Positions 11,665 to 64,000 of a DNA stretch of 64,000 bases are shown here, in pieces. The stretch comes from an uncultured Gammaproteobacteria bacterium (GTDB taxonomy: Bacteria > Patescibacteriota > Microgenomatia > JALYQM01), in NCBI GenBank assembly GCA_964535655.1, contig CAZHTP010000004.1, forward strand, positions 75,108 to 139,107. Reading direction: 5' to 3'. A model generated the notes under the pieces. The model was given only the letters and a program-made list of their open reading frames with translations, was not told where the DNA came from and ran no database searches. A program made the translations under genes and the position numbers. Within the stretch, counting starts at the first letter, position 1. Every line of letters starts with the position of its first letter.

Positions 11665-11678
11665 ATGCTTTCAGGAAT

Positions 11679-44150: not shown

Positions 44151-44172
44151 TTAAAAAGTGAGTTCAAATCGA

Positions 44173-44210: not shown

Positions 44211-44250
44211 GTATATACTAACTGGTACTTTTCTGGTATATTTTATCCTT

Positions 44251-44823
44251 ATGGAATTGAATGAATTTCGCGATTACCTGCGTATTTTCACTACAACCCA
44301 CGACGCTGAACTCCATAAAACTGCGCTTTTGCAAATGCTTGATCCGCTGGACCTAGATATTGAGTATAAAAAGCTTAATCAGGAGGGCGGATTGGATAGG
44401 GTAATGGCAATATTTTCTTCGTTCTCTGACGTTACTGATGACGAGTTGGTGACTGAATATGAGCGCAAGAGCTTGGAGCAAGTTGGTGCTTTAACTAAAG
44501 AGTACTTTGCAAAAGAAGCATATTCCTCTTTTGCTAAAATGGTTTTCGCGTTAACTATTGAATCGTTTGGAGAGAAATATGACTTGGGGGTAGAAGATGA
44601 GGAGTTAACTGAAGTTAAAATAGAGGATATTTACAATATTATTCCTTCGGAAATATATTTGCAGACATTTCTTCTGGAGAGTATGTCTGACGAGACTGCG
44701 TTTAATTGGAATCGCAGCCCGATAATTATTGAACAATCACTTTTAGCCTTAACGGTTTGTTTTAGTGATATTTATGCATTCCTGACTGAGGAAGATGATT
44801 ATATGGAAGAAATTGCTGATTAA
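44251..44823 (+). CDS. Hypothetical acidic cytoplasmic protein (start moved to ATG 44251)
   Basis: ORF MELNEFRDYLRIF… The first 31 codons of the track ORF start at GTG and cover the terminator hairpin. Confidence 0.4.
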   Translation: MELNEFRDYLRIFTTTHDAELHKTALLQMLDPLDLDIEYKKLNQEGGLDRVMAIFSSFSDVTDDELVTEYERKSLEQVGALTKEYFAKEAYSSFAKMVFALTIESFGEKYDLGVEDEELTEVKIEDIYNIIPSEIYLQTFLLESMSDETAFNWNRSPIIIEQSLLALTVCFSDIYAFLTEEDDYMEEIAD

Positions 44824-46047
44824 TCATTTCATCGCTTGTGTAATTACATCCAAGATCTTAGTGTTATGCTTTTCGATTGAAAATCTACTGATACTATCGT
44901 TAAGAGCATTTATTCCCATTTTTTTATTTAATTGCATATCAGCGCTAAGTTTATAGATTTTTTCGCTGAATTCTTCTAAATTAAATGGAGTTACCGCATA
45001 CCCGGTTAGATTGTCTTTAATAATGCCTGAAGGTCCGGCATTATTCCAAGCAATCACCGGAACTCCACAGGCCATGGCCTGGATTAAGCCCTTACCGAAA
45101 TCTTCCTCAGGGGCAGTGTAGATATATAGTGATGCGTTTTTATAAAGTAGATGGGTATCTATTTCAGTTGTGTAACCAGAAAAGATTATTTGAGATTCTA
45201 AATTTTTTTCTTTAATCAGATTAATGAGTGTATTTGTATATTCTGTTGGTGATCCTGTTATGACGAGTTTAGCTGTACAGTTTTCTTTCTTCTTTACTAA
45301 TTCTAGTGCGCAAATAGCATATTCAAACTTTTTTTTAGGCATGTGCCTATTGGTTAGTAAAATGTAAGGTTTGGGAATATTTTTTCCATTAATGGTACAT
45401 ATTCCGCTAAATCTATCGGTTTCATTTATTTCTTCACATGAAAGTGGAGTTGCTCCAGGCGGGCAATTAATGCAATCGCGCTTGTAAATATTCTCGAAAA
45501 CATGAAGCGCGTATTCTCCTTCGGTGATTATTGTTTTAGCGTGTTTCATAATCAAGGTATCAATTTTTCTGAATATTGGCTTTATTATCTTTATTACTAT
45601 TTTTGTAAAACTATTTAAGTCGGACTGTTCGCCAAATTCTTTATCAATTTTGCGAGGATATAAAAAACCTTGAGGATAGGGCATATAGACTATATACGGT
45701 TTCTTATTGATACGTGAAGCAATATAGGCAAAAAAAGGACCTGCTTGATTTGCTCCATAGTAGACATCCGAATCTTTGAACTTTAGTACTAAAAAAGGTG
45801 ATAAAAGCCCTGCAATAATGAGATATACCTCCCTTGGTAAAGATAGTTTTATAAACCAACCTGGAAGCAGAGAATTAATCGGATACTTGCTAATTATTTC
45901 AGGAAAGCAGGTGCTTTTATTTACATACGGTGCTACACCGGTGACCTGAAACCCTTTTTGTTGTAAAAAATCGATCGTCTCGAGTAATGTATGTTCAGCT
46001 CCTCCAGAGAAGAAGAACTCGGTGTGGAATATTGTTAACTTCTTCAT
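44824..46047 (-). CDS. Glycosyltransferase family 4 (GT-B, retaining)
   Basis: C-terminal GT4 E-x7-E region …TAPEEDFGKGLIQAMACGVPVIAWNNAGPSGIIKD…. Paralogous to 57429-58718. Confidence 0.7.
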   Translation of the reverse strand: MKKLTIFHTEFFFSGGAEHTLLETIDFLQQKGFQVTGVAPYVNKSTCFPEIISKYPINSLLPGWFIKLSLPREVYLIIAGLLSPFLVLKFKDSDVYYGANQAGPFFAYIASRINKKPYIVYMPYPQGFLYPRKIDKEFGEQSDLNSFTKIVIKIIKPIFRKIDTLIMKHAKTIITEGEYALHVFENIYKRDCINCPPGATPLSCEEINETDRFSGICTINGKNIPKPYILLTNRHMPKKKFEYAICALELVKKKENCTAKLVITGSPTEYTNTLINLIKEKNLESQIIFSGYTTEIDTHLLYKNASLYIYTAPEEDFGKGLIQAMACGVPVIAWNNAGPSGIIKDNLTGYAVTPFNLEEFSEKIYKLSADMQLNKKMGINALNDSISRFSIEKHNTKILDVITQAMK

Positions 46048-46087
46048 ATACTTGTAAGGAGTTTTTATGATCCTTTATAACTCACTG

Positions 46088-49000
46088 CTATTCTTCTGAA
46101 GGATCTTCATGAACCTTAAACGAAGCATTTTCAGATTTTGCTATCTCTAGTTTATCTTTAGTCTTCCAAATATAGTAATGTACCGTTCGATTAATTGATC
46201 CCGTGATTCCTAGAGCATACAAAACTAAGTAGGAAATGGTAAGAAGGCTTAGTACATTCAAAGCAATTTCCTTAGGGGTGTTCTCTATTTGCATGGTTAT
46301 TGTTTGATTTGCAGTCATCTTGGGTAGACGCATTCCTGTTAGCCTGGGGCCGGCTTGGTATAAGTTAACTTCCTTTTTGCCAGTAGCTGAATTTAAATAC
46401 GCATGCCATTTAGGGTAGTAACTTTCTCTCCAGTACAACGTAGTTGGAGACTCCGTACTATCGTTTAACGTGAACTGAACAATATCTGGTGAGGGCCTTT
46501 TAACTGAGACATGGTAATCGTTTATATTGTTTGTATTATTTTCTAAAAGCCACTGTAGAGAATATTTCAAAACTTCAATTTCTTTAGCGTTTTCATTTTT
46601 ACCTCCTTCAATGTGAGGGACAATATTCATCCCCGACCAGACAACTCGGCCTTTTCCATGAATCTTAGAAATAATCAAGGGAATATTATTGCTCTGTAAA
46701 ATGACATTTGCTCCGTCTCGGATATCTTGAGGAGAGGAAATTCCCCATGCGCTATCAAGATTAGTTAGATAACCAGCATCTTTATTTTCCGTATCCATAC
46801 CTATTTTTCCTGCTTGATCAAGAGTCATTTTAGAACGGGGAGCAGCTTCTTTCCAAACTAAATTATTCGTAGGGAAAAATGCTGAAGCTGATTTTAATTC
46901 CCAATCAGGGGATTCATATTGCCAGCCGGTATCTATGAACAAATTTCCTCCATTTTTAACATAATTATCCAGTAGATCATGTCCATTAGCTTGGTCATGA
47001 TAATTATATCCTTCAAGAAATAGTACATTAAATTTATTTAATTCATCGAGAGAGTAATCATCAACGTACGTTTTCCCCGCAAATAGCGTGGCTTTATCAT
47101 AGGGGAGTATTCCTAAATTAGCGGTCTTGAAAAATTGGTCGTAGAGAAATGTTTTTTTGTTTCCTATAAAAAGTACCGCTGGTTTACTGGTCCACGTAGT
47201 AAGCGTGGTGGGATTTTTGAAATGTCTCCAGTTAGGCTTATCTGCGTTTTCCCAATTTTGATCGTTATCGAAAAGCGACTTTGCAACTTCTGAATTGGTA
47301 GCTTGATATATGTATTCATATCCAAAATACTTAGCAAGTTCGCTAATTACTCCTGGTTTTTGATTAATTGGTTGATCAGAATACATTACTGATGACTGAT
47401 AATTCCAGAGTGCACTAAAAAGGTTGAGATTGTTTATATACACTTGGGTTTGAGAAGCATTAGTTAATAGTGGAGCTCTCATAATAATACTTCCTGCTAA
47501 GCCTGATAAATCGTAACGGGTGTCGAGTGGTTTATCGGGAATAAGAGAAAAGAACTCTGCTTCTTTTTTATAGTCGGAAAAATCGGGCTTCGTTACATTA
47601 AAGCGTGGCCAATTTTTAGGATTTAGCTGGTAAGCTAATGGAAGTTTATTGAGAGTGTTACAAAAATTAAATTTAGTCTCGGTCATCTCATGTTTATCGG
47701 TTGTACAGTAGGTAGTGAATATTTTAAGGTCATCAACTTGAAGTAGCTCGATTTTGTTTGTACGCTTAGTAATTGCTTTATCACAGAGTGAGTTAATGAC
47801 ATTATCGGAACCGCTATAGTTTTTGCAGAAAAAATATAATTCTTCTGGAGTATATGTAAGATCTGTATCGTAGTCGACGTCTTTATTCTGATTGGGGTCG
47901 TGTATGATAATTTTATTGTGTTCGCTTACTTGCTTCCATAGATTATCTCGGCTAACCTTTCCTATTCCTATCCTCAGAATTTTAGAAGTATCTCTTCCCT
48001 TTTCAACTTTTGCTGGATTTGTGTAAACTGTAACATAGAAGGTAAGTAAACTCATCATGCTTATTACGATTGCGGGTTTTAGAACATTACTCCAATTGAA
48101 CTGAATTAGTGGATGCACTTTTGTTATGAGTTTATCTATGATAATAAAAGGTAGTTCACACAGCGTATACACTCCATATGCTGCTAGTATCGGTACTATC
48201 ATTCGATATACCGTCCAAACCGATCGAGCATTGAATAATTCAGCGAAAACCCCAATTCTACTGAGGATGAATAAAACTATGGGTAAAGAAAGCGTTAGTA
48301 ACCCATATGTAGACATTAACCCAAATAAGGCCATTTTTTTTGATCTTAAGGCCCCAATCGTTCCCCCAATTGCAGCGAATATCCATATGAAAGGTTGCAA
48401 AGCCCAGTTATTCATGGGTTTTCGTGGATCGGAATCAGGATAATAATCAAAACCTAATACCTGCTTAAGGTGTAAGGTATGTGTTTCAGTGATATCGCTT
48501 AGCTTAACTGTTGGATTCGCATATCCGGCAAAACCTCCTTTTGCAACTTCAGCGCTATAATCTTGAAAATTTGCAAGTCGCCAGGAGAATAATCCTGTAA
48601 GACTTATATAAATGCATGCACCCGCTGTAAAACCATTTATAAGTGATTTCTTGAAATCTGTTTTTAACGGATTTTTGAGCATTCTTCCGATAATTAAAAT
48701 AAATAATACATTTGTTAGTCCCACACCTGTTGAAAAATGGGTTAGAAAAGTGATGGTGTAAAAAATCATGCCAAAAAGTAATGCTACTCGTTTTTTCCAA
48801 TCGTGCTCACCTTTAAAATGTTTATCGATAAAATAATCGAGAAGAATAAGAGTTGGGCCGGTGAACATATAGGAAACGGTTTCGGCATAAAATCCCCAGG
48901 GGTTGGCAAAAACGTAGGTAATTGGAGCGATGAGATAAAAAGTTGCAGCGGTTATTCCAATTGCTTGCCTGGCCACTTTATTTTTTGGATAATCGAGCCT

Positions 49001-49390
49001 GGTCCAACAATAAATAAATATCCCAATAGCTGTTATGAAAAATGCTGAAAACTCAACAATATTAAAAGAGCGAATTAAAGAGATATTAGTTAGATGATGA
49101 AAAAGTACTACAATGTAGTGGGCAAGAAAGGGATAGGCAGCTACGAAAGATACTCCGGCCCCTTGAAGTGGATACCAATAAGGGACATTGGGGTAAAATC
49201 TGTTAATCCATTCTACATAGGTAAAAGCACTAAATGAATCTGTTCCTATGGGTGAGAAAGCATTGATTGAAGACCAGTTGGCGGAATAAAAAAGGAAGGT
49301 AATTACAGCAAGTCCAATGATTGCGACCATGCTTTGGATTACAAAAGAAATTAACGATATAATTACTTTTTTAGGTTTGATTCTGTTCAT
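46088..49390 (-). CDS. Very large polytopic membrane protein, YfhO/GT-C-like (N-terminal ~12 TM, large exported domain, C-terminal TM anchor)
   Basis: 1100 aa. N-terminal 450 aa are multi-TM with aromatic-rich loops. About 550-aa hydrophilic domain. Final TM LNVLSLLTISYLVLYALGI. No STT3 WWDYG motif found. Confidence 0.4.
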   Translation of the reverse strand: MNRIKPKKVIISLISFVIQSMVAIIGLAVITFLFYSANWSSINAFSPIGTDSFSAFTYVEWINRFYPNVPYWYPLQGAGVSFVAAYPFLAHYIVVLFHHLTNISLIRSFNIVEFSAFFITAIGIFIYCWTRLDYPKNKVARQAIGITAATFYLIAPITYVFANPWGFYAETVSYMFTGPTLILLDYFIDKHFKGEHDWKKRVALLFGMIFYTITFLTHFSTGVGLTNVLFILIIGRMLKNPLKTDFKKSLINGFTAGACIYISLTGLFSWRLANFQDYSAEVAKGGFAGYANPTVKLSDITETHTLHLKQVLGFDYYPDSDPRKPMNNWALQPFIWIFAAIGGTIGALRSKKMALFGLMSTYGLLTLSLPIVLFILSRIGVFAELFNARSVWTVYRMIVPILAAYGVYTLCELPFIIIDKLITKVHPLIQFNWSNVLKPAIVISMMSLLTFYVTVYTNPAKVEKGRDTSKILRIGIGKVSRDNLWKQVSEHNKIIIHDPNQNKDVDYDTDLTYTPEELYFFCKNYSGSDNVINSLCDKAITKRTNKIELLQVDDLKIFTTYCTTDKHEMTETKFNFCNTLNKLPLAYQLNPKNWPRFNVTKPDFSDYKKEAEFFSLIPDKPLDTRYDLSGLAGSIIMRAPLLTNASQTQVYINNLNLFSALWNYQSSVMYSDQPINQKPGVISELAKYFGYEYIYQATNSEVAKSLFDNDQNWENADKPNWRHFKNPTTLTTWTSKPAVLFIGNKKTFLYDQFFKTANLGILPYDKATLFAGKTYVDDYSLDELNKFNVLFLEGYNYHDQANGHDLLDNYVKNGGNLFIDTGWQYESPDWELKSASAFFPTNNLVWKEAAPRSKMTLDQAGKIGMDTENKDAGYLTNLDSAWGISSPQDIRDGANVILQSNNIPLIISKIHGKGRVVWSGMNIVPHIEGGKNENAKEIEVLKYSLQWLLENNTNNINDYHVSVKRPSPDIVQFTLNDSTESPTTLYWRESYYPKWHAYLNSATGKKEVNLYQAGPRLTGMRLPKMTANQTITMQIENTPKEIALNVLSLLTISYLVLYALGITGSINRTVHYYIWKTKDKLEIAKSENASFKVHEDPSEE

Positions 49391-49423
49391 GGAAGTTTTG
49401 CTTACTTGATGATAGTAATTGAA

Positions 49424-50347
49424 CTATGATTTTCGTGCAAGAACATTTATGGCTGTCCAAAAAAGGCGTTTCTTTTCAAGTTTTTGAAGCAGAAGTTTCA
49501 ACTTGCCAGAAAAATGAGGCAATTCTGGTGTAAATTCATATCTGAATACTTCAACTTGTTTATATCCGGCTTTTTTGTGCATTTTTTTTATAGTACTTGG
49601 CAAAAAAGATTTTTCATACCCGGTGAACATAAATTTGGTTTTAAATATTTTTCTGTGTATAAAATAAAATAACGGTTTTAATAGGGGGATTTCAGGGATG
49701 TTGCCTGAAAATTGACGATAGGTTAAAGAACTTACTGAAACTACTGGAATAGTATTGATGATATATCCATTTTTTCGGGTAACTTTGTAAAGTTCACATA
49801 ACGCATCTTGTGTTTGTTCGATGTGTTCAAGTGTGCCACCTCCGTAAATGATATCAAAAGTATTTTCTTTAAAAGGAGGATGGGCGATATCGGCACACAC
49901 AAGAAAACAGGGTATTTTGTATAGTTTGGCGATCTGCTTCGTTAAGGCAAGTGAAGTTAAGGAGAAGTCGATACCATAGATTGTGTACCCCTTTTGAGCA
50001 ATGGTATTTATTGCGATACTTCCCCCAATGCCAAGTTCAAGGTAATTACCGTGTTTTTTATTAGGTAATGTTTCGAGCAATTTTCTTAAAGGAAAATACT
50101 CTTTTATTTTTTGTTTAGCAAAATCATAGAGCTTTTCCTCTTTAATATTTCCTTCGTTGTAGAGTTCATGAAATTTTTTTAAAGAGAGTTTTGTTTCTTC
50201 TTCATCAATGATTTGTGTGAAATCAGGAATGCCATTATGTACTGGATAGGTGCGATGACATGTTGAACATACAAGACTTCTTTCGGCTTCTTCAACTGAT
50301 GATCGGCAAATAGGGCAGGCTAGAATAGTAAGAAATTGTTTGTTCAT
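49424..50347 (-). CDS. Class I SAM-dependent methyltransferase with N-terminal Trm112-like zinc ribbon
   Basis: CPICRSS…CSTCHRTYPVHNGIPDF (Trm112/UPF0434-type C4 ribbon), then MTase motif I LELGIGGS and post-I acidic IYGIDFS. Confidence 0.65.
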   Translation of the reverse strand: MNKQFLTILACPICRSSVEEAERSLVCSTCHRTYPVHNGIPDFTQIIDEEETKLSLKKFHELYNEGNIKEEKLYDFAKQKIKEYFPLRKLLETLPNKKHGNYLELGIGGSIAINTIAQKGYTIYGIDFSLTSLALTKQIAKLYKIPCFLVCADIAHPPFKENTFDIIYGGGTLEHIEQTQDALCELYKVTRKNGYIINTIPVVSVSSLTYRQFSGNIPEIPLLKPLFYFIHRKIFKTKFMFTGYEKSFLPSTIKKMHKKAGYKQVEVFRYEFTPELPHFSGKLKLLLQKLEKKRLFWTAINVLARKS

Positions 50348-50350
50348 ACT

Positions 50351-51481
50351 TTATACTAGTTTAACTAGTTCATTTTCTAATAATTCCGATTGAATAGCTA
50401 AATCATATTTTTTTTCAGCAAATAGCCGATTTTTTAAACCAATTTCATTTCTTTTTTCAGTGTCGTTTATCATATCATTTAATGCTGCTATTAATTGATC
50501 AAGATTTTGTTCTTCGATAAAGGAGTTTTGCGGTTCAACTTCTTCCACTATTCCACCAGATTTTGTTGCAATGATTGGTAATCCGCTCGCTTGTGCTTCG
50601 AGCAATGTATACGAAAAATATTCATGCCAGAAAGGGATTCCGAGGATACTGCTCGTTTGAGAAGGAGAGCAAAAAATATCTGCGGTTTGGTAAAGGGTCG
50701 GTAACTGAGAGTAGTTAACTTGACCGTGATACACGATAGGTAGGTAGTTGGATGCATTAATAATCTCATTGGTTAGTGCTCCTTTCCCGGCGATATGTAA
50801 TTCTACGTTATTTTCTTTAGATATTGCAGCAAAGGCTTGCAAGAGAAGTCGTATTCCTTTGGCTTCAGATAATGCTCCGACATACAAAATTCGTATTTTT
50901 TCTGATACTTGTTTAATTTTTGCGGGGGTAAATTGCTCAAGACTAATTCCAGGATAAATTACGCGTGTTTTACTTCGTGGAATTCCAATCGAATCGGTGA
51001 ACTCGTAGGCTTTATAATTGCGAAGAATGAACAATTCAGAATTCTTAATAACTTTATTCGTTATTATTGAATAGGGTGGTAACCATGAGGAAATATGATT
51101 CGGAAGATTACACCAGATAATGGTATAGAAAGGGATTCGGTTTCTCTTAGCAAACGTTTCTAATTGATAATTCCAAAAATAATAGGTATCGGTAATTCCT
51201 ATCAGTGAACTGTTTTCTAGAATATTTTCTAAGCCCTTTAACATTTTCCAGGATAGATTGTTGGGAGAATTTGAAATCATTTCTACTGGATCCAATATTA
51301 GTGGAGAATAGTAATTTAAGGAGGCATAAGTAATATTTTGATATTCTGTAGAAACTGGTGTGAAGTTTGTGCTACCAAATAATTCCGGTCTGAAAATTTT
51401 AAATCTATTATAGAGATCAAAATTTATTAATCTACTTTCACTATTTACTACTAGTTTTTTCATTGGTGGGACCAAAGGCAT
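50351..51481 (-). CDS. Glycosyltransferase family 4
   Basis: C-terminal …GIPFWHEYFSYTLLEAQASGLPIIATKSGGIVEEVE… GT4 donor-binding region. 376 aa. Confidence 0.55.
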   Translation of the reverse strand: MPLVPPMKKLVVNSESRLINFDLYNRFKIFRPELFGSTNFTPVSTEYQNITYASLNYYSPLILDPVEMISNSPNNLSWKMLKGLENILENSSLIGITDTYYFWNYQLETFAKRNRIPFYTIIWCNLPNHISSWLPPYSIITNKVIKNSELFILRNYKAYEFTDSIGIPRSKTRVIYPGISLEQFTPAKIKQVSEKIRILYVGALSEAKGIRLLLQAFAAISKENNVELHIAGKGALTNEIINASNYLPIVYHGQVNYSQLPTLYQTADIFCSPSQTSSILGIPFWHEYFSYTLLEAQASGLPIIATKSGGIVEEVEPQNSFIEEQNLDQLIAALNDMINDTEKRNEIGLKNRLFAEKKYDLAIQSELLENELVKLV

Positions 51482-52562
51482 CGATTATTGTATTGGCAAT
51501 AATATCATGACCGGCTTGAGAAGGATGTAACAAATCTTCGGAAAGTACCTTTTCTGCTCCGGCTGCTTTCATAGGAGTATACACATCAATTAGTTGCATT
51601 TTTTTAGAATAAGCGAGGTCCTTGATCATTTTATTCCAGGCGATATCTTTACCGCCATTTTCTGTCCAGTCTTTATTGCAGCAGTTTTGATAATAAATAT
51701 TTACAAGGAAAACGGTTCGTTCTGCGGAAGGTGCCGAAGTATTGATTATTTTTTCTAGATTATCTTTTACATATAGCATTTTAAACCCTTCACTACTTTT
51801 GTCCGCGCCACTAATCAAGTCATTAATACCAACCGCAATGCTCACCAAATCTGGATTGGCTTCGTCAATTTCACTTTTAATCCGTGGAACTAAATCTTGA
51901 GTGGTTGTTCCAGTGACTCCTTTGTTTATTGTTTTTAATTTGGGATTGGTTTTTTTAAGGTAATTTGAAAACTGGTCTACCCAACCGTTGTCTTTTGCTG
52001 CTCGTGATCCTTGGGTTATGCTATCGCCTGATGCAAGATATACTTGATAGGAATCTTTTTTCCCTATTGTTGGTTTAATTTCTTCGAATTTTGTTTCTAT
52101 TTTAATTGGTTCACTTCGTAGACCTTCGATTTTGTTGTCAAAGGTTAACGCTGCGACTGAATATGAATAGCTTTCACCTGGGTAGAGATTGGTGTCAGTA
52201 AAGGTTGAAAGCTCTCCGAGTATATCTGTGTACCAAAAACCGTCTCGATAAATGCGATATCCTGAATGAAGTATATATGGTTTCATTTCTGGAGAGAAAG
52301 CTACGAGCTTTCTCTGAGCGAAATTCCATGAAAGTGATACACTGTTAGAAGTTGACTCAGCTTTAAGATCTGTCGGAGCATATAGATCAGATTTAGTGTT
52401 TCCTTCTGTAATTTTTATAGTAAATGTATTTGCAAATTTTTCTGAGATTTTATTTTGTTCTTTTTGGGTCCTTGGATCAATTTTGCGGGAATAGTCGAAG
52501 TAAAAAAATCCCATGGTGAGAGCCAATACAACGCAACCTGCAATAAAGATTATTTTATTCAT
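51441..52562 (-). CDS. Membrane-anchored SGNH/GDSL hydrolase with Fn3-like N-domain
   Basis: N-terminal TM. Fn3-like segment (…VSLSWNF…YRIYRDG…). SGNH block I YLASGDSITQGS and block V …DLLHPSQAGHDII. Confidence 0.6.
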   Translation of the reverse strand: MNKIIFIAGCVVLALTMGFFYFDYSRKIDPRTQKEQNKISEKFANTFTIKITEGNTKSDLYAPTDLKAESTSNSVSLSWNFAQRKLVAFSPEMKPYILHSGYRIYRDGFWYTDILGELSTFTDTNLYPGESYSYSVAALTFDNKIEGLRSEPIKIETKFEEIKPTIGKKDSYQVYLASGDSITQGSRAAKDNGWVDQFSNYLKKTNPKLKTINKGVTGTTTQDLVPRIKSEIDEANPDLVSIAVGINDLISGADKSSEGFKMLYVKDNLEKIINTSAPSAERTVFLVNIYYQNCCNKDWTENGGKDIAWNKMIKDLAYSKKMQLIDVYTPMKAAGAEKVLSEDLLHPSQAGHDIIANTIIDAFGPTNEKTSSK

Positions 52563-53682: not shown

Positions 53683-53683
53683 A

Positions 53684-55396: not shown

Positions 55397-55438
55397 GTGG
55401 GTAGAGTATAGCGTAAACTAAAGTACGTCAAGGTCGAT

Positions 55439-56566: not shown

Positions 56567-57448
56567 ATGTTTAATTATTTTAAATTGTTCATCCATGCTT
56601 AGTTCTTTTGAGAAGTAATAGTTAGGAAAATATGCTTCTTGAGATGAGAGTGCTGGCAACGTATTTGTAATTAAATTCCGAAGTACGAAAAATGCATTAG
56701 TACCAGAACTATCGCAGCCTACCAGACTATATCCTTTAGTTGCTCCTAGCTTCGCTAACGCACTGAGAGACGCTCCATGATACAAATTGCTTGGGTGTTT
56801 GTTTCCACAGTAAAAATCTGGATCATAGACCGTAGATATTGACCTGCTTACTCCTAACTGCGCATTATATTCTATTACTACAACACGGGGCTTTATCGAA
56901 ACTATGGCTTCCCAGATCCAATAATCATTGCCATCGATGTCGATGGACAATAAATCAATTTCCCCGCTAATATTTGATTTTATACATTCATCGACGCTTT
57001 CCTTTTTCGCTTGGTGATGAATTAACTTAATATTTTTAAAATTAGTACCTAGTAGTTGTTTATAAAAAAAAGTGGCTAGTTCCAAATATTCGATAGTTTG
57101 ATCTATCAGTAGACCTTTCCACTGTTTACGTATCAGGTAGGTCGTATTGTTTTCGGTACCGTCACCGATGCCGATCTCGACGAACACTTTATTTGTCGTT
57201 CCGATTTGAGAGAAAATATATTCAATAATTCCGTCCTCACCATTTTGAGAGTACATGGTTTTTTCATGCTTATTAATTATGTTTTTTTGTGTCGAATTAT
57301 TTAGTTTGAATTGTCTGTTAAGATTATTTCTTTTATATTGTAGTTGTTGAGAAATTAAAATTAACTGTACTTTTTTAGAAAGGTTTCTTCTTAAGTACAT
57401 TGCGATGTTATTGCGAAGCCATTGCACTTTATTCGATATTATTTTCAT
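56546..57448 (-). CDS. Class I SAM-dependent methyltransferase (FkbM/TylF-like sugar methyltransferase candidate)
   Basis: Motif I VFVEIGIGDGTEN. Motif II acidic LLSIDIDGNDYW. N-terminal YSQNGEDGIIEYIF box. Confidence 0.4.
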   Translation of the reverse strand: MKIISNKVQWLRNNIAMYLRRNLSKKVQLILISQQLQYKRNNLNRQFKLNNSTQKNIINKHEKTMYSQNGEDGIIEYIFSQIGTTNKVFVEIGIGDGTENNTTYLIRKQWKGLLIDQTIEYLELATFFYKQLLGTNFKNIKLIHHQAKKESVDECIKSNISGEIDLLSIDIDGNDYWIWEAIVSIKPRVVVIEYNAQLGVSRSISTVYDPDFYCGNKHPSNLYHGASLSALAKLGATKGYSLVGCDSSGTNAFFVLRNLITNTLPALSSQEAYFPNYYFSKELSMDEQFKIIKHLPFKDI

Positions 57449-58718
57449 AAGATATTATTATTCTATTTTTTTGTAATTCGGATATTCTTTTTTTTATAAT
57501 CTTTTGAATATGACTGTGTAGTGCCATTTGATGATTTGTCCAGGAATATTTTTCTTCAATAGTTTTTGCTGCATTGCGAGAAACAAATTTGGCTATTTCT
57601 TTATTTTCCAAAACTACTTTAATATACTTTCGCATATCGTTGTTGTCACCGGGACTCGCGAGAAATCCATTGTGCCCATGGGTAATTATTTTGGATGGAC
57701 CGGCGTTATCCCACGCTATTACCGGTTTACCCTGAGCCATGGCTTCAATTATTCCCATTCCAAAATCTTCTTCGGGTGACGTATATAGATAGAGCGTACA
57801 TTCCCGATAGAGTCGTTTTAACTCCTTCTCATAAACATACCCCAAGAAATATACATATTTTTCAAGGCGATAGTATTTAACTAGTTTACGTAATTCGTCT
57901 GTATATTCGGTAGTTTCACCAGATATTACTAGTGGGATTTTATCTTCCATGCTATCAAGGATCTCTAAAGCATATTCAAATTTTTTGTGGGGAAAATGAC
58001 GATTGGACATAAATATAAAGGGCTTTTCAATTGTTAGCCTGCGAAATTGAAATATTCCTTTCCCGCTTTCCGGCTTTTTTGTGAGGTTATTTACTGATGC
58101 ACCGGGAGAGCAGACAATTGGGGTTTTACCGTAAATCTGACTTAATACTTTTTGCATATACATTCCGTTGGTAAGAAAAATATCTGCACTTAGAATGCTT
58201 TTTAAATCTATCCAATAAAATAATGGTCGCAATATATTCACTATATGCGGTAAGAATTGCATTTTGTTCTTAATTTGAATTCCTACTTCGTTATCAATAG
58301 GACGCTTGTACAGAATGCGAGTTGGCTGGGCAACATATATGAGGTAGGGAATATTAAAAAGTGACTTTAAAATAAACCCAAAGATCGGACCCGGTTGATT
58401 AGCTCCGATCACTAGATCGTATTTTCGGTACTTAAAAGCCAAAAAAGGGAAGAGCAAACATACCAGTAGTACGCCAATTTCTGGTTTGCGATGGAATACT
58501 TTTGTTATACCAGGAATAATTTCTTTTGCTGCTGCTTTTTTTATTAAATCTGGAAAACATATAGTTGTGTCCAATAGAGGAGAATAACAGTCAACTGTAT
58601 AACCTAATTTACGTAGTAAACTTATTTCCTTAAGCGCAAGTTTTTCTCCTCCGCCTGAATAGAGAAACGCGAGATGAAAATAAGCGACTTTGATATCACT
58701 TGGATTTACTGTAGGCAT
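57429..58718 (-). CDS. Glycosyltransferase family 4 (paralog of 44824-46047)
   Basis: …TSPEEDFGMGIIEAMAQGKPVIAWDNAGPSKII… N-terminal FHLAFLYSGGGEKLALKEISLL resembles FHTEFFFSGGAEHTLLETIDFL in the other copy. Confidence 0.7.
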   Translation of the reverse strand: MPTVNPSDIKVAYFHLAFLYSGGGEKLALKEISLLRKLGYTVDCYSPLLDTTICFPDLIKKAAAKEIIPGITKVFHRKPEIGVLLVCLLFPFLAFKYRKYDLVIGANQPGPIFGFILKSLFNIPYLIYVAQPTRILYKRPIDNEVGIQIKNKMQFLPHIVNILRPLFYWIDLKSILSADIFLTNGMYMQKVLSQIYGKTPIVCSPGASVNNLTKKPESGKGIFQFRRLTIEKPFIFMSNRHFPHKKFEYALEILDSMEDKIPLVISGETTEYTDELRKLVKYYRLEKYVYFLGYVYEKELKRLYRECTLYLYTSPEEDFGMGIIEAMAQGKPVIAWDNAGPSKIITHGHNGFLASPGDNNDMRKYIKVVLENKEIAKFVSRNAAKTIEEKYSWTNHQMALHSHIQKIIKKRISELQKNRIIISYENNIE

Positions 58719-59643
58719 AGTTAGGTATCCAGAGTTTATTAGTTATGAACTCTTCTCGCAGACGCTCAGTAATTATGTTACTTTTATTTTCATTTTCGAT
58801 ATTAAGTTTCTCAAGTGTAAATGGTTGAGAAAGTGCTACATGAAGAGGATTCTCTTTTAAATATATTCTTCGGTCGAATAAGAAATGACGTAAAATCTTC
58901 GCTGTGGTAATCCCGGTGATTTGTGCTGCATATAATTGTATATTCCTGCGCTCGAACGAGCTGTGGGTAATAATTTCTCCTATCCCGTTGTACCACAGTT
59001 CTGGGTTATTGCTTCCGCCATCGGGAAATATTATGACGACATGACCTTCTTTAAGGAGTTGTGCTGCTTTTTCGATTGTATGCTTATTTTGTACTCGTAC
59101 ATCTTCTGGTTTGGCATAACCGGTTAATTGTCTCATTACATAAAAACCAATTGTATTTAAGAATCCGCGATTATACAGATTCTTTTTGGTTCGGGAATAG
59201 GTAATAGGAATTATCTGTTTCCCAATATTTTTTCCTTTATTTTTTTGGTAAATGTCAGCAACGATATACACATCTTCGCGGTTTAAACAGGCTGCTATAA
59301 TAAAAGGATCAAGTCCCGTAGGATGATTACCGAAAATCAGTGCCGGGCCTATAATATCAATTGGGTTTTGGATGTTAATTTCGATATTTAAATCTTTTAA
59401 GTAATTTCGTGTGCTTTCCGAAAAACCTGTGTCTTCAATTTTTTTATCGTACCTGGCATTGATCTTTAAAATGCTTTCGTAGGGTAGGATCAAGAAGAGA
59501 GTTTTTAATAGATACTTAATTGGTATAAATCGCTTTTTGTCGTAAATCCATTCTAAGATTCCAAGCGTTCCTTTTTCGTTATATAGCTGCTTTAGTGCGG
59601 GCATCATGACTTTAGACCTTTTCTCCTGTAAAGAAAAATGCAT
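58696..59643 (-). CDS. Lysophospholipid/glycerol-phosphate acyltransferase family (PlsC-like H-x4-D acyltransferase)
   Basis: H-x4-D motif LIFGNHPTGLDPFII. Later …FPDGG… block. 315 aa. Confidence 0.5.
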   Translation of the reverse strand: MHFSLQEKRSKVMMPALKQLYNEKGTLGILEWIYDKKRFIPIKYLLKTLFLILPYESILKINARYDKKIEDTGFSESTRNYLKDLNIEINIQNPIDIIGPALIFGNHPTGLDPFIIAACLNREDVYIVADIYQKNKGKNIGKQIIPITYSRTKKNLYNRGFLNTIGFYVMRQLTGYAKPEDVRVQNKHTIEKAAQLLKEGHVVIIFPDGGSNNPELWYNGIGEIITHSSFERRNIQLYAAQITGITTAKILRHFLFDRRIYLKENPLHVALSQPFTLEKLNIENENKSNIITERLREEFITNKLWIPNYAYSKSK

Positions 59644-60460
59644 TGGAATATCCGAAGCGTGTTACTAGTGTATCAACTTTTTCGCAAATTGGTAATGCAA
59701 TTTCACTTATTGCATTGGTAATTGTTAATAATTTACTTCCGATTAGATCCTTGTGTTTAGTAGGGGTAATTTTTTCCGTAATCATTAAAAATATATAGAG
59801 GGCACAGTCTAGTATGAGAATACTTGTGGCATCGAAAAGGCGTATTTTGGTGTTTTTCATTCCGGCATCGATAAAGAGTTGCTCTATTTCCTTAGGATCG
59901 AAAAATAATTCTTTTACGTGTCCGGCGCGTGTAAGGTGATAGTCACTACCTAATTTCTCTAAAGTCCAGTCAATAGTAAACCGATTATGTTTATTGATCG
60001 TATTTAACAGGATTTTTCCATCAGGTTTTAATACGCGCACCATTTCTTTAATTACTTCATTATATTCTTTGATATGTTCAAGATTATCGAAGCTGGTGAT
60101 GAGATCAAAAGTGTTGTCGTCAAAGGGAAGTTTGGATGCATCGGCAATCAAATACGTGTTGGTAGGATCTTCCTGTTGTGCTTTCTTAATAAGGACTTCG
60201 GATACGTCGATACCGGTGCCTGGGCAATTATACGTAACTCTTATTCGTTGTAATAATAATCCCGACGCGCAGCCCATATCAAGGATTTTGGTCTTTTCAT
60301 TTATTTTCCACGAGTCAAAGTATCTTTTGGCGGCAAGATCCTTGGGACGTAGCGTTTTTGAGAATCCCGTTTTTCGTACTAATTTTTCCCATGGATTTAG
60401 TGGGGGATTTTTATCATAATGACTCGCTTGCCATTTCGTGTGATCTGAGAATTCCGACAT
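59612..60460 (-). CDS. Class I SAM-dependent methyltransferase (Methyltransf_11/23-like)
   Basis: Motif I ILDMGCASGLLL, post-I GIDVS, motif III LKPDGKILL. Confidence 0.65.
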   Translation of the reverse strand: MSEFSDHTKWQASHYDKNPPLNPWEKLVRKTGFSKTLRPKDLAAKRYFDSWKINEKTKILDMGCASGLLLQRIRVTYNCPGTGIDVSEVLIKKAQQEDPTNTYLIADASKLPFDDNTFDLITSFDNLEHIKEYNEVIKEMVRVLKPDGKILLNTINKHNRFTIDWTLEKLGSDYHLTRAGHVKELFFDPKEIEQLFIDAGMKNTKIRLFDATSILILDCALYIFLMITEKITPTKHKDLIGSKLLTITNAISEIALPICEKVDTLVTRFGYSNAFFFTGEKV

Positions 60461-60492
60461 ACAGAAGAGAGTACGGCTTTAAAAAGTAGCCG

Positions 60493-61353
60493 TCAAGAAC
60501 CGAAGAGAATGTTACTAAATAGACAATCCATGTATTCGATATTCTCGCTGCTTGGGACTGCCCGCAATCGAATTAGTTGAAAGTTATATTCATCGGTACA
60601 TAATTCTTTTATCAGCTCGGAAAAGGTGTAATTATTATTTTTATTAACGGTAATTTCTATCAGTAAATACTGCGTGTTTTTGAGTGTCGAAGTCGCTTTT
60701 TTAAGTATTTGTAATTCGTGTGACTCGGTATCTATTTTTAGTAAATGTATACGAGTAATATTATTTTCTGTAGTGAATGAATCAAGGGTTGTGGCTTGGA
60801 CTTGGTGATCTCCGTTCGTATCGATGCGGCTCAGTTCGTTATGTTGGTTATCGTGGAGCATTGTCACCGTAGTCGTGGTATCAGATATTGCACAATTATG
60901 TGTTTTTGTATTTGAATCGCTACTGAAATTTTGTTGTAAAGCCCGATAGGTTTGCTCTACCGGTTCAATTGCATGGATTGTCGCATCGGGATAAATTGAA
61001 CGGGCTAGTTTAGAGAAACAGCCTACATTGGCACCGATATCGACGATAATTCCTCTCTGCGGTATAGCAATCTTTTTAAAATTTTTACGGTGTGTATTTA
61101 TGACAAATTGAAATGGGGCAAGCCCGAACGGTGCATTATAGAATATTTTTTCGGATTTAACTTGTGCAAAACTTTCTCCGAAAATGAATTCTTTTTTTAC
61201 TAGATACTTACAGATTACACAATATTTCGTTCGTAAGAATGAGAATTTATAGTTAGGAGTCCAATAGGGAAGTAGGAGCGTTGAAAGGTCTAATTTTATT
61301 GTCTGTAATACTGACCGTATGATCTGTGTGGTGTTTGTATATAATCTAGCCAT
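60493..61353 (-). CDS. FkbM-family methyltransferase
   Basis: IVDIGANVGCFS (FkbM DIGANxG box) and downstream …HAIEP…. About 100-aa N-terminal extension. Confidence 0.6.
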   Translation of the reverse strand: MARLYTNTTQIIRSVLQTIKLDLSTLLLPYWTPNYKFSFLRTKYCVICKYLVKKEFIFGESFAQVKSEKIFYNAPFGLAPFQFVINTHRKNFKKIAIPQRGIIVDIGANVGCFSKLARSIYPDATIHAIEPVEQTYRALQQNFSSDSNTKTHNCAISDTTTTVTMLHDNQHNELSRIDTNGDHQVQATTLDSFTTENNITRIHLLKIDTESHELQILKKATSTLKNTQYLLIEITVNKNNNYTFSELIKELCTDEYNFQLIRLRAVPSSENIEYMDCLFSNILFGS

Positions 61354-62814
61354 ATGTTGTTGCGGTTGCGTACTTATTTTTCGAATGAAAACGTGATTAT
61401 TGTTCTGACTTTATTTGTCTATTTTATTACTCTCTTTTTTACCATTTTTCATCATGAACTTTGGCATGAGGAAATGCAGGGCTGGTTAATAGCTCGCTCT
61501 GCGAATTCTATTTCTACGCTTTATTCTAACTTACGATATGAAGCGCATCCAATGCTTTGGTATTTACTGCTTTTTATAGTTTCACGGTTTACTTCTGATC
61601 CGTTGTGGATGCAACTACTTAGCGGCCTTATTGGTTGTTTAGTAGCGTTCATATTCCTTAAATATGCTCCATTTCGATTATATCAGCGAGTGCTGTTTGT
61701 ATTTGGTTATTTTCCTTTATATGAATACGTCGTATTAAGCAGGAACTATTTACTCACCGTTCTATTTTTATTTAGCTATTGTATTTTTTTTGTGCGTAAT
61801 AAATATTGGATGGCGGCATTTTCCTTATTATTGATCATGCAAACATCAATTCCTGGGTTGATTTTAGGGACATTACTTGGATTGCATTTAACAATTTGTT
61901 TTAAAAAGAAGCAGCTTTATTTAGGATTGTTATTGATCTTAAGCATTGCGCTGTCTCTATTCCAAATAATTCCACCTCACGATTATGGTATCACTGTTGA
62001 TTGGATTACTTCCTTTGATTATAGGCGTTTTTTGATGGTATTAATTATGCTTTGGCGAGGCTATTTTCCTATACCACGGTTAAGCCTTTCATTTTGGAAT
62101 ACTAACATTCTTATTCCCGATTTTGCTGGAAATACTTTCTTGTTTACTCCTACTGCAGTCTTGGGCTTAAGTTTTGCTCTTACCTTTTCACTTTTACTAC
62201 TAATTGGAATTGGATGTTATTTTTTTCATAGACGTAAAGTTATGATTCTATTTTATGCCGGAACTCTGAGTTTGTTATCCTTTTTTTACTTTTTTTACTA
62301 TGGAGCGGTTCGACATTGGGGATTCTTATATTTGTTTTTTATCTGCTGTGTCTGGATTTCGTATCAGCAGACTACGAGATATCGTTTATATTTTTTTACA
62401 CTGTTGCTTTGCGCTCAACTTTATTCTGGGCTGTTCGCTATTTTTTTAGATATCAATTATACATTTGCTGCAGGAAAAGCAGCTGCTTTGTATGTTACTG
62501 AGAATAAATTGCAAAATACGGTGCTTATTGGAGATATAGATACCCATGTAGTGTCAGTTGCTGGATATGTGAACTCTTCTTTTTATTATCCTCGAGAAAA
62601 AGTAAAAAGCAGCTTTGCTGTTGTCAGAAAGAATCGAGAAACTGTACGCGAGGATGCTTTATTCTTATTTGGGCCAAGTACTTTGATTTTGTCGTATCCG
62701 CTGCTGTATCCTCACTGCGAAATTATCTTTCAGAAATCCTTTATTGCACAAATTGCACAAGCGGACAGTTATTACGTGTACACAGTGAATGACTCAAAAT
62801 GTAGGAAATTATAA
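61354..62814 (+). CDS. Polytopic membrane protein, GT-C/PMT-ArnT-like candidate
   Basis: 486 aa, about 12 TM. First-loop acidic/aromatic segment HHELWHEEMQGW. Start abuts the divergent FkbM gene start with zero spacing, so one start is probably over-called. Confidence 0.4.
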   Translation: MLLRLRTYFSNENVIIVLTLFVYFITLFFTIFHHELWHEEMQGWLIARSANSISTLYSNLRYEAHPMLWYLLLFIVSRFTSDPLWMQLLSGLIGCLVAFIFLKYAPFRLYQRVLFVFGYFPLYEYVVLSRNYLLTVLFLFSYCIFFVRNKYWMAAFSLLLIMQTSIPGLILGTLLGLHLTICFKKKQLYLGLLLILSIALSLFQIIPPHDYGITVDWITSFDYRRFLMVLIMLWRGYFPIPRLSLSFWNTNILIPDFAGNTFLFTPTAVLGLSFALTFSLLLLIGIGCYFFHRRKVMILFYAGTLSLLSFFYFFYYGAVRHWGFLYLFFICCVWISYQQTTRYRLYFFTLLLCAQLYSGLFAIFLDINYTFAAGKAAALYVTENKLQNTVLIGDIDTHVVSVAGYVNSSFYYPREKVKSSFAVVRKNRETVREDALFLFGPSTLILSYPLLYPHCEIIFQKSFIAQIAQADSYYVYTVNDSKCRKL

Positions 62815-64000
62815 ATTATCTGTGTTAATAGTATAGGTAACTAAATTTCCGTAGGTACCTTTGGCTGGAGTTGCTAGTCTTGGCTCCAGAGCAAAAAGCT
62901 TAGTGTATCTATCACGATCACTGTACGTAATCATGAACTTAATATTATTTTTCTTGAAGAAAAGTAATACTTCATCGCGTACGGTCATGCCTTGTTTATT
63001 AAAGGGATCGACTTGGTTCCAGTTTGCATACGGATCGAGCCCATTTTGTTCAAAGTAATAATACGGGTCATACATCTGACTCACTAAGTCTTTTCCTTGC
63101 ACACCTTCTTCATGCACTAGTGCATAAGTAATATCTGGATTACCCTCAATCATTAGTAACCCGCCACCTTTGTAATCCTGAATTAAATCTTTTGAAACTA
63201 CTTTAACATTTTCCCAGGTTGGTTGAGTTGGGTTATAGTATTTAAAAATCTCAGGCCACGCGAGCTGCGTTGCGCCGATTGCTCCTAAAAGTACAATGCA
63301 GCTTAGCAGTGTACCAAAAATGTTATTTAGTAACTTTATCTTGGTTGGAATATAGTAAAAAAGAAATGCGGAAAATGCGATACATAGAAATGTGTAGGGA
63401 TACAGCATAAACCGTACAACCCACACATAATCCGCCCAGGACTTTATGTATTCTGAAAAGCCAAAGGTTAATCCTAAAAAGAGCCAGTTCCCGAGTCCCA
63501 TGAGGTGCCATTGCCACGCACGTGGCTTTCGCCAAAGAGTTAGTCCGATACCGAAAACCGTTATAGCAGTGATTACACGGAAGGCAAATTGGCCAAAAAG
63601 ATCTTTTGAATCGAGTGCTTGTTTGTACTGCCATTCGCCCTGAATATTTTTATTTACATTCTGGTACAAGGGATACACTGGATTGCCCGTATAGTCCAGT
63701 AAATATTTCATGTACGGAAGGAGTATTATAAGGAGGCCAAATATGAGTAATACTTTCTTATCTGTTTGAACAAGCCGGTCAAAAATTATAAATGCTGCAA
63801 CAAGACCTACGCTAAAAACCCAGAATTCTGATCGAGTCATCATTGCAATTCCAAGAAATATTCCTGCCAAGAATGACTTTCTTGGCCAGTAATAAATTCC
63901 ACCTAAGAGAAAAGGAATTCCCAGAGGTTCGACCATCCCTGTTGCATCGTTAAAGATTATGACAGAACAGCACGCTGTGAACACCGCAGCTGCGATTCCC
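62809..64000 (-). CDS. Polytopic membrane protein, GT-C-like; probably 5'-truncated by the window edge
   Basis: Multi-TM N-half, exported C-terminal domain (…NWNQVDPFNKQGMTVRDE…). The open frame runs to the window end. Confidence 0.4.
   Translation of the reverse strand, partial: GIAAAVFTACCSVIIFNDATGMVEPLGIPFLLGGIYYWPRKSFLAGIFLGIAMMTRSEFWVFSVGLVAAFIIFDRLVQTDKKVLLIFGLLIILLPYMKYLLDYTGNPVYPLYQNVNKNIQGEWQYKQALDSKDLFGQFAFRVITAITVFGIGLTLWRKPRAWQWHLMGLGNWLFLGLTFGFSEYIKSWADYVWVVRFMLYPYTFLCIAFSAFLFYYIPTKIKLLNNIFGTLLSCIVLLGAIGATQLAWPEIFKYYNPTQPTWENVKVVSKDLIQDYKGGGLLMIEGNPDITYALVHEEGVQGKDLVSQMYDPYYYFEQNGLDPYANWNQVDPFNKQGMTVRDEVLLFFKKNNIKFMITYSDRDRYTKLFALEPRLATPAKGTYGNLVTYTINTDNL

Follow-up and report, generated by a model that had tools for sequence, protein, structure and literature searches.

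RESULTS

Gene content and layout of the locus

The 64,000-nucleotide stretch analyzed here (contig CAZHTP010000004.1 of assembly GCA_964535655.1, positions 75,108 to 139,107; hereafter the window) carries at one end a dense cluster of genes for glycosyltransferases and sugar-modifying enzymes. The cluster spans positions 44824 to 64458 in window-equivalent numbering (19.6 kb) and consists of 15 consecutive open reading frames (ORFs), 13 of them on the minus strand according to the ORF listing. All 15 had been proposed in an earlier reading of the window made without database searches (the original prediction), and each was found where it had been placed. We conclude that the locus is a real and coherent glycoconjugate biosynthetic system, in which the combination of enzymes is uncharacterized and every part comes from a known superfamily. 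Domains were called with Pfam and NCBIfam scans, and the Pfam assignments below are above the gathering score unless marked as sub-threshold. The genes, with protein lengths in amino acids (aa), are as follows (SAM, S-adenosylmethionine; TM, transmembrane).

44824..46047, minus: GT4 glycosyltransferase, 407 aa (PF00534, 105.9 bits)
46088..49390, minus: giant GT-C glycosyltransferase, 1100 aa (PF10131, 30.2 bits)
49424..50347, minus: SAM methyltransferase with an N-terminal Trm112-like zinc ribbon and without TM segments, 307 aa (PF03966, 35.4 bits; PF08241, 61.7 bits)
50351..51481, minus: GT4 glycosyltransferase (core type), 376 aa (PF00534, 103 bits)
51441..52562, minus: membrane-anchored protein with fibronectin type III (fn3) and SGNH esterase/acyltransferase domains, 373 aa (PF13472, Lipase_GDSL_2, 84 bits; fn3, E=2e-4)
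52555..53682, minus: GT4 glycosyltransferase, 375 aa (PF00534, 65.6 bits; PF13439, 38.6 bits)
53684..55396, minus: O-carbamoyltransferase of the NodU/CmcH/TobZ class, cytoplasmic, 570 aa (PF02543 and PF16861)
55439..56566, plus: GT4 glycosyltransferase, 375 aa (PF00534, 71 bits; PF13439, 60 bits)
56546..57448, minus: soluble protein of uncertain family, possibly divergent FkbM-like, 300 aa (sub-threshold Pfam matches only)
57429..58718, minus: GT4 glycosyltransferase (core type), 429 aa (PF00534, 111.7 bits)
58696..59643, minus: PlsC/LPLAT-type acyltransferase, 315 aa (303 aa in the public gene call; PF01553, 34.1 bits)
59612..60460, minus: class I SAM methyltransferase (core type), 282 aa (PF08241, 77.9 bits)
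60493..61353, minus: FkbM-family methyltransferase, 286 aa (PF05050, 71 bits; TIGR01444, 91.6 bits against a cut-off of 37.7)
61354..62814, plus: GT-C-fold membrane glycosyltransferase, 486 aa (no Pfam family; structure model)
62809..64000, continuing to 64458 equivalent, minus: PMT_2-family GT-C (core type), full length 549 aa (PF13231, 40.3 bits)

The last ORF passes the window end by 458 nt, and the N-terminus of the PMT_2 protein lies outside the window. The full ORF was read from an identical 22-kb Logan contig (L001), which adds 2.4 kb past position 64000 and contains the rest of the PMT_2 gene, a divergent 175-aa ORF, and then an incomplete 121-aa ORF. It had been suggested that an initiating transferase and a flippase be sought just beyond position 64000. 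A Pfam scan that took in the full PMT_2 protein and the 175-aa ORF gave no match to either in this 2.4 kb, and the 175-aa ORF had no Pfam match.

The layout differs in two respects from that first described. Overlaps of 4 to 40 nt had been reported throughout the array, whereas 7 of the 14 junctions overlap (by 6 to 41 nt) and the other 7 are gaps of 0 to 42 nt. Similarly, one or two operons had been suggested, but the array, interrupted by two plus-strand genes, must comprise five or more transcription units.

Unit 1: the PMT_2 gene
Unit 2: the 486-aa GT-C gene
Unit 3: the FkbM gene through the 300-aa gene (five genes)
Unit 4: the plus-strand GT4 gene
Unit 5: the carbamoyltransferase gene through the 407-aa GT4 gene (seven genes)

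The start codons of the FkbM gene (minus) and the 486-aa GT-C gene (plus) abut as CAT/ATG with 0 nt between them (window 61351-61356), and those of the carbamoyltransferase gene (minus) and the neighboring GT4 gene (plus) are 42 nt apart (window 55397-55438). At both divergent pairs, the promoters must lie within neighboring coding sequence, or the start codons have been mis-assigned. Scans for consensus promoters and terminators gave counts at chance level (60 against 68 expected, and 15 against 14.5 expected) and are uninformative for operons. The GC content is 0.362 in the cluster and 0.393 in the remaining window, and Rfam and tRNA scans of the window gave no match.

Three GT-C membrane enzymes

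Three polytopic membrane proteins of the cluster had been called GT-C-like, and this assignment holds for each: one matches PF10131, one belongs to PMT_2, and the 486-aa protein has the GT-C fold. All three are members of the GT-C superfamily, and in each the first loop outside the membrane has a conserved acidic residue.

The 1100-aa protein is predicted to have about 11 N-terminal TM helices, a soluble region of about 590 aa, and one C-terminal TM helix. Its Pfam family, PF10131 (PTPS_related), is a member of the GT-C clan. The residue D51, in the loop after the first TM helix, is invariant across homologues, and conservation within the giant GT-C family is highest in the C-terminal ectodomain. 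When a predicted model was searched with Foldseek, the TM part matched AftD, STT3, AftA, ArnT, and AglB, while the soluble part, composed of a ThuA/GATase1-like domain and a beta-sandwich, matched a GH42 domain, STM3548, ThuA-like proteins, and the N-terminal domain of IFT52. PF10131 was listed as a GT-C clan member of "function unknown" in a 2021 survey (PMC7801869). That survey was the only literature found on PF10131 or PTPS_related and on glycosylation in the candidate phyla radiation, and we found none that characterizes PF10131 or this cluster type.

The 486-aa protein has no Pfam match, but its structure model is confident, with a predicted local distance difference test score (pLDDT) of 89 and a predicted template modeling score (pTM) of 0.90. 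Residues H34, E35, and E40 in its first outer loop are nearly invariant. The top structural matches were ALG12, ArnT, Pmt4, ALG6, ALG3, ALG9, PIG-M, AftA/B, PimE, and STT3/AglB, and the best of these neighbors (ALG12, ArnT, Pmt4, ALG6, ALG3, PIG-M, AftA/B, and PimE) all use polyprenyl-phosphate monosaccharide donors. We also considered whether this protein might be the missing Wzx flippase or Wzy polymerase and rejected the idea: the model matched only GT-C structures, and transporters of the major facilitator superfamily type and other membrane proteins outside GT-C gave template modeling scores of 0.09 to 0.16. Since transporter folds are unmatched and the first-loop residues H34, E35, and E40 are nearly invariant, the protein is not the missing flippase.

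GT4 glycosyltransferases and tailoring enzymes

Most of the enzyme families named in the original prediction were recovered. Pfam identifies five Glycos_transf_1 proteins, in agreement with the five GT4 enzymes proposed. The 407-aa and 429-aa GT4s are paralogues with 35% identity. The 429-aa protein is 75% identical to its counterpart in the closest genome, the metagenome-assembled genome MDV bin63 (GCA_030855825.1, contig JALYQM010000007.1; L002), and 58% identical to that in a second related locus, L009. The solved structure closest to the 376-aa GT4 is that of PimB' (3oka, E=2.5e-10), and the match is limited to the C-terminal domain. A possible role in defense, raised by "GT4-conflict" Pfam matches, was rejected because PADLOC was negative. 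That scan covered three of the five GT4s (407, 429, and 376 aa) and the 300-aa, 486-aa, acyltransferase, and SGNH proteins, and it gave just a generic methyltransferase similarity to mad2.

The proposed NodU/CmcH-type carbamoyltransferase has both expected domains, Carbam_trans_N and Carbam_trans_C (202.8 and 246.3 bits). It aligns end to end with GdmN (residues 8-569, E=4e-90), NovN, and TobZ (E=1e-76 to 4e-90), so by sequence the 570-aa protein is assigned to the NodU/CmcH/TobZ O-carbamoyltransferase family. It shares with TobZ, GdmN, and NovN the YrdC-like plus Kae1-like two-domain build as well as full-length homology; unlike them, it is encoded in a glycan locus, whereas theirs are secondary-metabolite clusters.

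The acyltransferase, predicted from an H-x4-D motif, carries both H107-PTGL-D112 and F206PDGG210, which are invariant in three orthologues. With the HX4D and FP(E/D)G motifs present and a PF01553 score above the cut-off of 23 bits, the 315-aa protein is placed among the PlsC/LPLAT acyltransferases. It is the most conserved protein of the cluster, being 84% identical in MDV bin63. The anticipated membrane-anchored SGNH hydrolase was likewise found. It has one N-terminal TM segment (residues 4-22), the Lipase_GDSL_2 domain, and the catalytic blocks GDS179, GINDL, and D343-LL-H346, and it probably faces outwards. TM prediction placed neither an N-terminal TM segment nor a membrane anchor in the methyltransferases, the carbamoyltransferase, or the acyltransferase; it marks one internal hydrophobic stretch in the 282-aa methyltransferase.

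Four SAM methyltransferases had been counted, of which three are clear: the Trm112-type enzyme, the Methyltransf_11 enzyme, and one FkbM protein. The second FkbM-like protein of that count, 300 aa long, has sub-threshold matches only. It contains the motifs YSQNGEDGII, EIGIGDG, and IDLLSIDIDGND and is kept in MDV bin63 at 56% identity. Its score for FkbM (PF05050) is 15.4 bits against a threshold of 22.7, with Pfam E values of 0.015 to 0.02. A comparison with FkbM by hhalign gave a probability of 0.7% and aligned the IDLLxIDxxG motif alone. Searches against the Protein Data Bank (PDB) returned nothing meaningful (best E=0.32 alone and 1.2 with a two-sequence profile).

It had also been suggested that carbamoylation, methylation, and acylation of an oligosaccharide match, by function, the decoration of Nod factors. 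The chemistry is indeed analogous to that of NodU, NodS, and NodA, and the NodU model is the only sizeable NCBIfam match of the carbamoyltransferase. However, none of the family assignments follows. The score for the NodU equivalog NF041651 is 154.2 bits against a cut-off of 1000, and the protein is closer to GdmN, NovN, and TobZ. NodS (PF05401) reaches 18.3 bits against 24, and NodA and NodC were unmatched in Pfam and NCBIfam, as were NodB and NodIJ. The backbone enzymes also come from other families: they are GT4 proteins and not a GT2 chitin-oligomer synthase, the cluster contains no GT2, and the three GT-Cs have no role in Nod-factor synthesis. We therefore consider it very improbable that the product is a Nod-factor-like secreted lipo-oligosaccharide, that is, a short, N- or O-acylated, methylated, carbamoylated molecule that is released.

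Another possible product is a cytoplasmic polymethylated polysaccharide like the mycobacterial methylglucose lipopolysaccharide (MGLP) or methylmannose polysaccharide (MMP), which would be a lipid-binding storage glycan. GT4s, several SAM methyltransferases, and an acyltransferase together resemble the MGLP gene set. However, the genes for the three GT-Cs and the outward SGNH protein are tightly embedded in the cluster, and the GT-Cs are the most conserved partners across related loci, which points to an extracytoplasmic site for the product. A storage glycan of this kind is thus hardly plausible.

A conserved core with variable decorations

The comparison with related genomes that had been recommended showed a recurrent core with variable tailoring genes, and none of the related loci is a characterized one. 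In MDV bin63, the same gene order is found at 50 to 84% amino-acid identity, which indicates that the arrangement is not due to chance. The cluster in that genome contains two copies of the giant GT-C gene and has two further genes, which encode an RmlD-like reductase and an FAD amine-oxidase/NAD_binding_8 protein. These two genes lie at 1607-3918 between the FkbM gene and the gene for a 515-aa GT-C homologue, and they hint at a 6-deoxyhexose or modified sugar in that variant. In L009, the cluster is flanked as in the window, by HAD, 104-aa, and 221-aa genes and by the gene for a DNA ligase with 80% identity. The cluster proteins of L009 are just 33 to 62% identical to those of the window, and six genes are absent (those for the carbamoyltransferase, the SGNH protein, the Trm112-methyltransferase, the FkbM protein, the 300-aa protein, and the 486-aa GT-C). 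Conserved flanks around divergent content suggest that the glycan genes vary while their chromosomal site stays the same, and the GC content of the cluster, lower than that of the remaining window, fits a variable site.

More distant relatives were found through the giant GT-C, which has 10 word-sharing homologues among 5.8 billion proteins. A profile search of 1.84 billion proteins gave 903 cluster representatives at E<=1e-3, of which 438 remain at E<=1e-30. The best 150 of these matches are mostly 900 to 1,200 aa long, and the shorter ones look like fragments. Among 39 metagenome loci of at least 12 kb containing a member of the giant GT-C family, the 429/407-type GT4 is present in 31, PMT_2 in 27, an MT_11 methyltransferase in 25, and the 376-type GT4 in 21. 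The carbamoyltransferase and the acyltransferase each occur in 2 of the 39 loci and the SGNH protein in 3, and the window's FkbM, 300-aa, and 486-aa proteins occur in none. In 29 of 69 loci, the giant GT-C has two to three paralogues, often encoded in tandem or close together (L007, positions 6663-13330; L008, L009, L011, and metagenome loci). MT_11 genes are the most abundant extra neighbors (89 genes in 45 loci). Other recurrent neighbors are sugar epimerases/dehydratases, B12- and SPASM-type radical SAM enzymes, LPG_synthase_TM proteins, AlgX-like SGNH proteins, nucleotidyl transferases, DegT aminotransferases, and other FkbM proteins.

The locus is therefore one version of a recurrent, uncharacterized cluster type in uncultured bacteria that probably belong to the candidate phyla radiation. 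The core of this type consists of a PF10131 GT-C of about 1,000 to 1,100 aa (often with two to three paralogues), a PMT_2 GT-C, GT4s, and several methyltransferases. The carbamoyltransferase, acyltransferase, SGNH, and FkbM genes are clade-specific add-ons.

Initiation and export genes

As stated in the original prediction, no phosphoglycosyl transferase (PGT), Wzx/Wzy/Wzz, or ABC exporter was found in the window by the Pfam and NCBIfam scans, which included all proteins predicted to be polytopic in the membrane and the majority of the larger ORFs. Across 79 related loci, no PGT, Wzx, GtrA, or ABC family was found among the recurrent neighbor families scanned, and a Wzm/Wzt-type ABC-2 permease/ATPase was found neither in the cluster nor among the scanned window proteins or the scanned recurrent neighbor families. 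The 221-aa single-TM protein encoded at 44158-44823 was considered as a small PglC-type PGT and rejected, as it has no Pfam match even at E<=1. No characterized cluster type matches the locus, which bears out the statement that its product cannot be read from known cluster types.

A conventional wall or S-layer polysaccharide linked to undecaprenyl diphosphate would need its PGT and flippase elsewhere in the genome, with one GT-C serving for en-bloc ligation or oligosaccharyl transfer and the remaining two adding side-chain sugars. STT3, AglB, and PglB are indeed among the structural neighbors of the GT-Cs, pathway genes are often scattered in small genomes, and the 64 kb inspected belong to a contig at least 204 kb long. 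However, no PGT or Wzx was found among the recurrent neighbor families scanned in the 79 related loci. In addition, no STT3 match (PF02516) was found, and no WWDYG-type motif is present among the invariant columns of the giant GT-C, so that the similarity to STT3, AglB, and PglB is at the level of the fold only. We consider such a pathway rather unlikely.

Neighboring genes and host lineage

Two genes away from the cluster, a plus-strand gene at 43041-44150 encodes a 369-aa secreted protein with a signal peptide, a weak cupredoxin-like domain (Copper-bind, E=0.0095), and a conserved C-terminal domain. It contains a Pro/Thr/Ser/Ala linker of about 130 aa (66 Thr, 46 Ser, 41 Ala, and 40 Pro among the 369 residues). 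A terminator-like hairpin with a 14-bp stem lies 3' of the gene at 44171-44201.

This protein is a candidate substrate for protein O-glycosylation, in which the GT4s and tailoring enzymes would make a glycan linked to a lipid or directly to protein, and the PMT_2 protein or the giant GT-C would put sugars on Ser/Thr residues of secreted proteins. The Pro/Thr/Ser-rich protein is encoded at the same position in L007, L009, and L013, and the best NCBIfam matches of the 407-aa and 429-aa GT4s are the SdgA/SdgB adhesin O-glycosyltransferases. However, these matches are far below threshold (74 to 84 bits against a cut-off of 800), and the similarity is generic and confined to the GT4 C-terminal domain. 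Pro/Thr/Ser-rich ORFs were found in only 3 of 79 related loci, all in one clade, and the association is confined to four close genomes. Its link to the cluster may therefore be plain synteny. The 549-aa PMT_2 protein has the PF13231 domain (40 bits), but no match to the PF02366 PMT family and no MIR domain were reported, and acylation together with multiple GT-C paralogues would be unusual for protein O-glycans. For these reasons, we regard protein O-glycosylation as unlikely.

The window encodes the bacterial proteins ClpB, signal peptidase I, PcrA, MetRS, RuvB, and FemAB. An archaeal origin, considered because of matches to a dnl1-type ligase, Trm112_arch, and Agl16, was ruled out by ClpB, the bacterial signal peptidase I, PcrA, RuvB, and FemAB. 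The nearest named relatives of RuvB, at 67% identity, are from Candidatus Collierbacteria and Bacillota, and a 28%-identical homologue of the giant GT-C is labeled Candidatus Pacebacteria. Some related metagenome contigs carry "Hain-H43-01um" names, which we take to denote groundwater small-cell size-fraction samples. The host is probably of a lineage like the candidate phyla radiation (CPR)/Patescibacteria.

Several other genes of the window are of interest. The ligase (40183-41955, plus) is a 590-aa dnl1-type, archaeal/eukaryotic-like ATP-dependent DNA ligase (TIGR00574, 399 bits) that is 80 to 82% identical in L007 and L009, where it adjoins two CYTH-domain genes. A 433-aa GT28 protein resembling monogalactosyldiacylglycerol synthase is encoded at 11679-12980, minus (PF06925, 27.8 bits); this protein may make diacylglycerol glycolipids and so provide a glycolipid anchor. 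One gene of the window (19928-21718, plus) is GT2-like, the only such gene seen: it encodes a 596-aa protein in which about seven TM helices flank a GT2 domain with a weak, sub-threshold match (about 22 bits), and its architecture resembles that of a synthase, or possibly of a polyprenyl-phosphate-sugar synthase. An ADP-forming acetyl-CoA synthetase-like gene (23095-25176, minus), a LacD-like tagatose/fructose-bisphosphate aldolase gene (14986-15987, plus), and a SAM hydroxide adenosyltransferase (DUF62) gene (32929-33687, minus) form a set consistent with a reduced, fermentative lineage. A Fic-domain protein is encoded at 38063-39133, plus (weak, 43 bits). The FemAB-family peptidyltransferase gene (35695-36747, minus; 110 bits) points to peptidoglycan with an interpeptide bridge.

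DISCUSSION

Taking the evidence as a whole, the best explanation is that the locus assembles a decorated cell-envelope glycoconjugate in two compartments. The most likely product is a glycan that is anchored to a lipid and heavily O-methylated, either a lipoglycan or a wall-associated polysaccharide, and we give this explanation an even chance of being correct. Its two parts deserve different degrees of confidence. The two-compartment model, with cytoplasmic GT4s and tailoring enzymes acting on a lipid-linked glycan before GT-C steps outside, is likely. The identity of the product as a lipid-anchored glycan of the lipoglycan type is more tentative, and we put it somewhat below an even chance.

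In the proposed pathway, the five soluble or peripheral GT4s would first build an oligosaccharide on a lipid acceptor at the cytoplasmic face of the membrane, as the chemistry of the family suggests. GT4 enzymes use nucleotide sugars and retain the anomeric configuration. In the second step, the glycan would be tailored while it is still cytoplasmic: three, possibly four, methyltransferases would O-methylate sugars, the TobZ/GdmN-type enzyme would O-carbamoylate a hydroxyl group via carbamoyl-AMP, and the PlsC-type enzyme would attach an acyl chain. These reactions are placed in the cytoplasm because the enzymes have no signal peptide or anchor and because SAM, ATP and carbamoyl phosphate, and acyl thioesters or acyl phosphates are available only inside the cell. 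In the third step, the intermediate would be flipped across the membrane by a protein that is not encoded in the cluster. In the fourth step, the three GT-Cs would, judging from their fold, extend, branch, or transfer the glycan outside with polyprenyl-phosphate-linked donors. The ectodomain of the giant GT-C, with its ThuA-like domain and beta-sandwich, probably holds the growing acceptor, and the fn3-SGNH protein may edit O-acyl groups outside.

The closest functional analogy is the actinobacterial pathway from phosphatidylinositol mannosides (PIM) to lipomannan (LM) and lipoarabinomannan (LAM). In that pathway, the GT4s PimA and PimB', the acyltransferase PatA, and the GT-Cs PimE, MptA/B, EmbC, and AftC/D act in turn. 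The logic is that proposed for our locus: in the cytoplasm, a membrane lipid is glycosylated by GT4s and acylated by a PlsC-type enzyme without a PGT, Wzx, or Wzy, and GT-Cs extend the product outside. A lipid-anchored glycan made by such a logic is suggested by three observations: no PGT or export gene was found in the scans of these loci, the acyltransferase is of the PlsC type, and PimB' is the closest solved relative of the 376-aa GT4. A lipid-anchored product would also explain why no PGT, Wzx/Wzy, or ABC exporter was found with the cluster in the window or in its relatives. Furthermore, AftD, AftA, AftB, EmbA, and PimE are structural neighbors of the GT-Cs, and the giant GT-C has an Emb/AftD-like build of a TM domain with a large ectodomain. 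However, the similarity is at the superfamily level. No similarity of the acyltransferase to PatA was found, the locus encodes no Ppm1 or other polyprenyl-phosphate-sugar synthase, and the ectodomain is ThuA/GATase1-like, whereas Emb-type proteins have carbohydrate-binding modules. The locus also adds methyl, carbamoyl, and SGNH decorations and belongs to another phylum.

The eukaryotic/archaeal lipid-linked oligosaccharide pathway shows a similar division of labor, with cytoplasmic GT4s (Alg2 and Alg11) and GT-Cs on the far side (ALG3/9/12/6/8/10 and STT3). ALG12, ALG6, ALG3, ALG9, and STT3/AglB are among the top structural matches of the 486-aa protein. In contrast to that pathway, the locus has no Alg7/WecA-type initiator and no STT3 Pfam match or WWDYG motif, and it contains bacterial tailoring enzymes. 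It also differs from the three-component modules for glycosylation with polyprenyl-phosphate sugars (GtrA/B/C, ArnC/ArnT, and CsbB/YfhO) in lacking a GT2 and a GtrA-like flippase and in having far more enzymes than are needed for simple side-chain glucosylation.

Several points weigh against the assembly of a lipid-anchored glycan as proposed here. The cluster encodes no lipid acceptor, flippase, or polyprenyl-phosphate-sugar synthase (GT2), and the first, third, and fourth steps therefore rely on genes outside it. The similarity of the 376-aa GT4 to PimB' is weak and confined to the C-terminal domain, and the acyltransferase matched no PDB sequence, that of PatA included. The AlphaFold2 model of the 1100-aa protein is of medium quality (pLDDT 67), and GT-C folds cannot distinguish monosaccharide transferases from en-bloc oligosaccharyl transferases. 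The Pro/Thr/Ser-rich secreted protein encoded two genes away favors a protein acceptor. Finally, if the host is a CPR bacterium that makes no fatty acids itself, the acyl donor would need another source.

A broader proposal is that the locus represents an undescribed CPR-like pathway, in which a lipid-anchored, heavily O-methylated glycan would be started without a PGT and polymerized outside by giant PF10131 GT-Cs, a dedicated family with ThuA-like ectodomains and often two to three paralogues, with swappable carbamoyl, acyl, and methyl decorations creating antigenic or host-interaction diversity. We regard this proposal as speculative and, on present evidence, doubtful. If it is true, the pathway would be a functional counterpart, in the envelope of CPR-like bacteria, of the LM/LAM pathway of actinobacteria.

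The locus is not a categorically new mechanism of glycan biosynthesis and overturns no principle. Its importance lies in the organisms that carry it, since the envelope chemistry of ultra-small CPR/Patescibacteria-like bacteria is almost unexplored and probably mediates attachment to host cells. The module of giant GT-C, PMT_2, GT4, and methyltransferase genes provides a first functional context for PF10131. The version in the window is unusually rich in decorations, with carbamoyl, acyl, and methyl groups and an SGNH editing enzyme. The comparison of related loci separates a conserved core from swappable decorations and suggests a pathway that starts without a phosphoglycosyl transferase.

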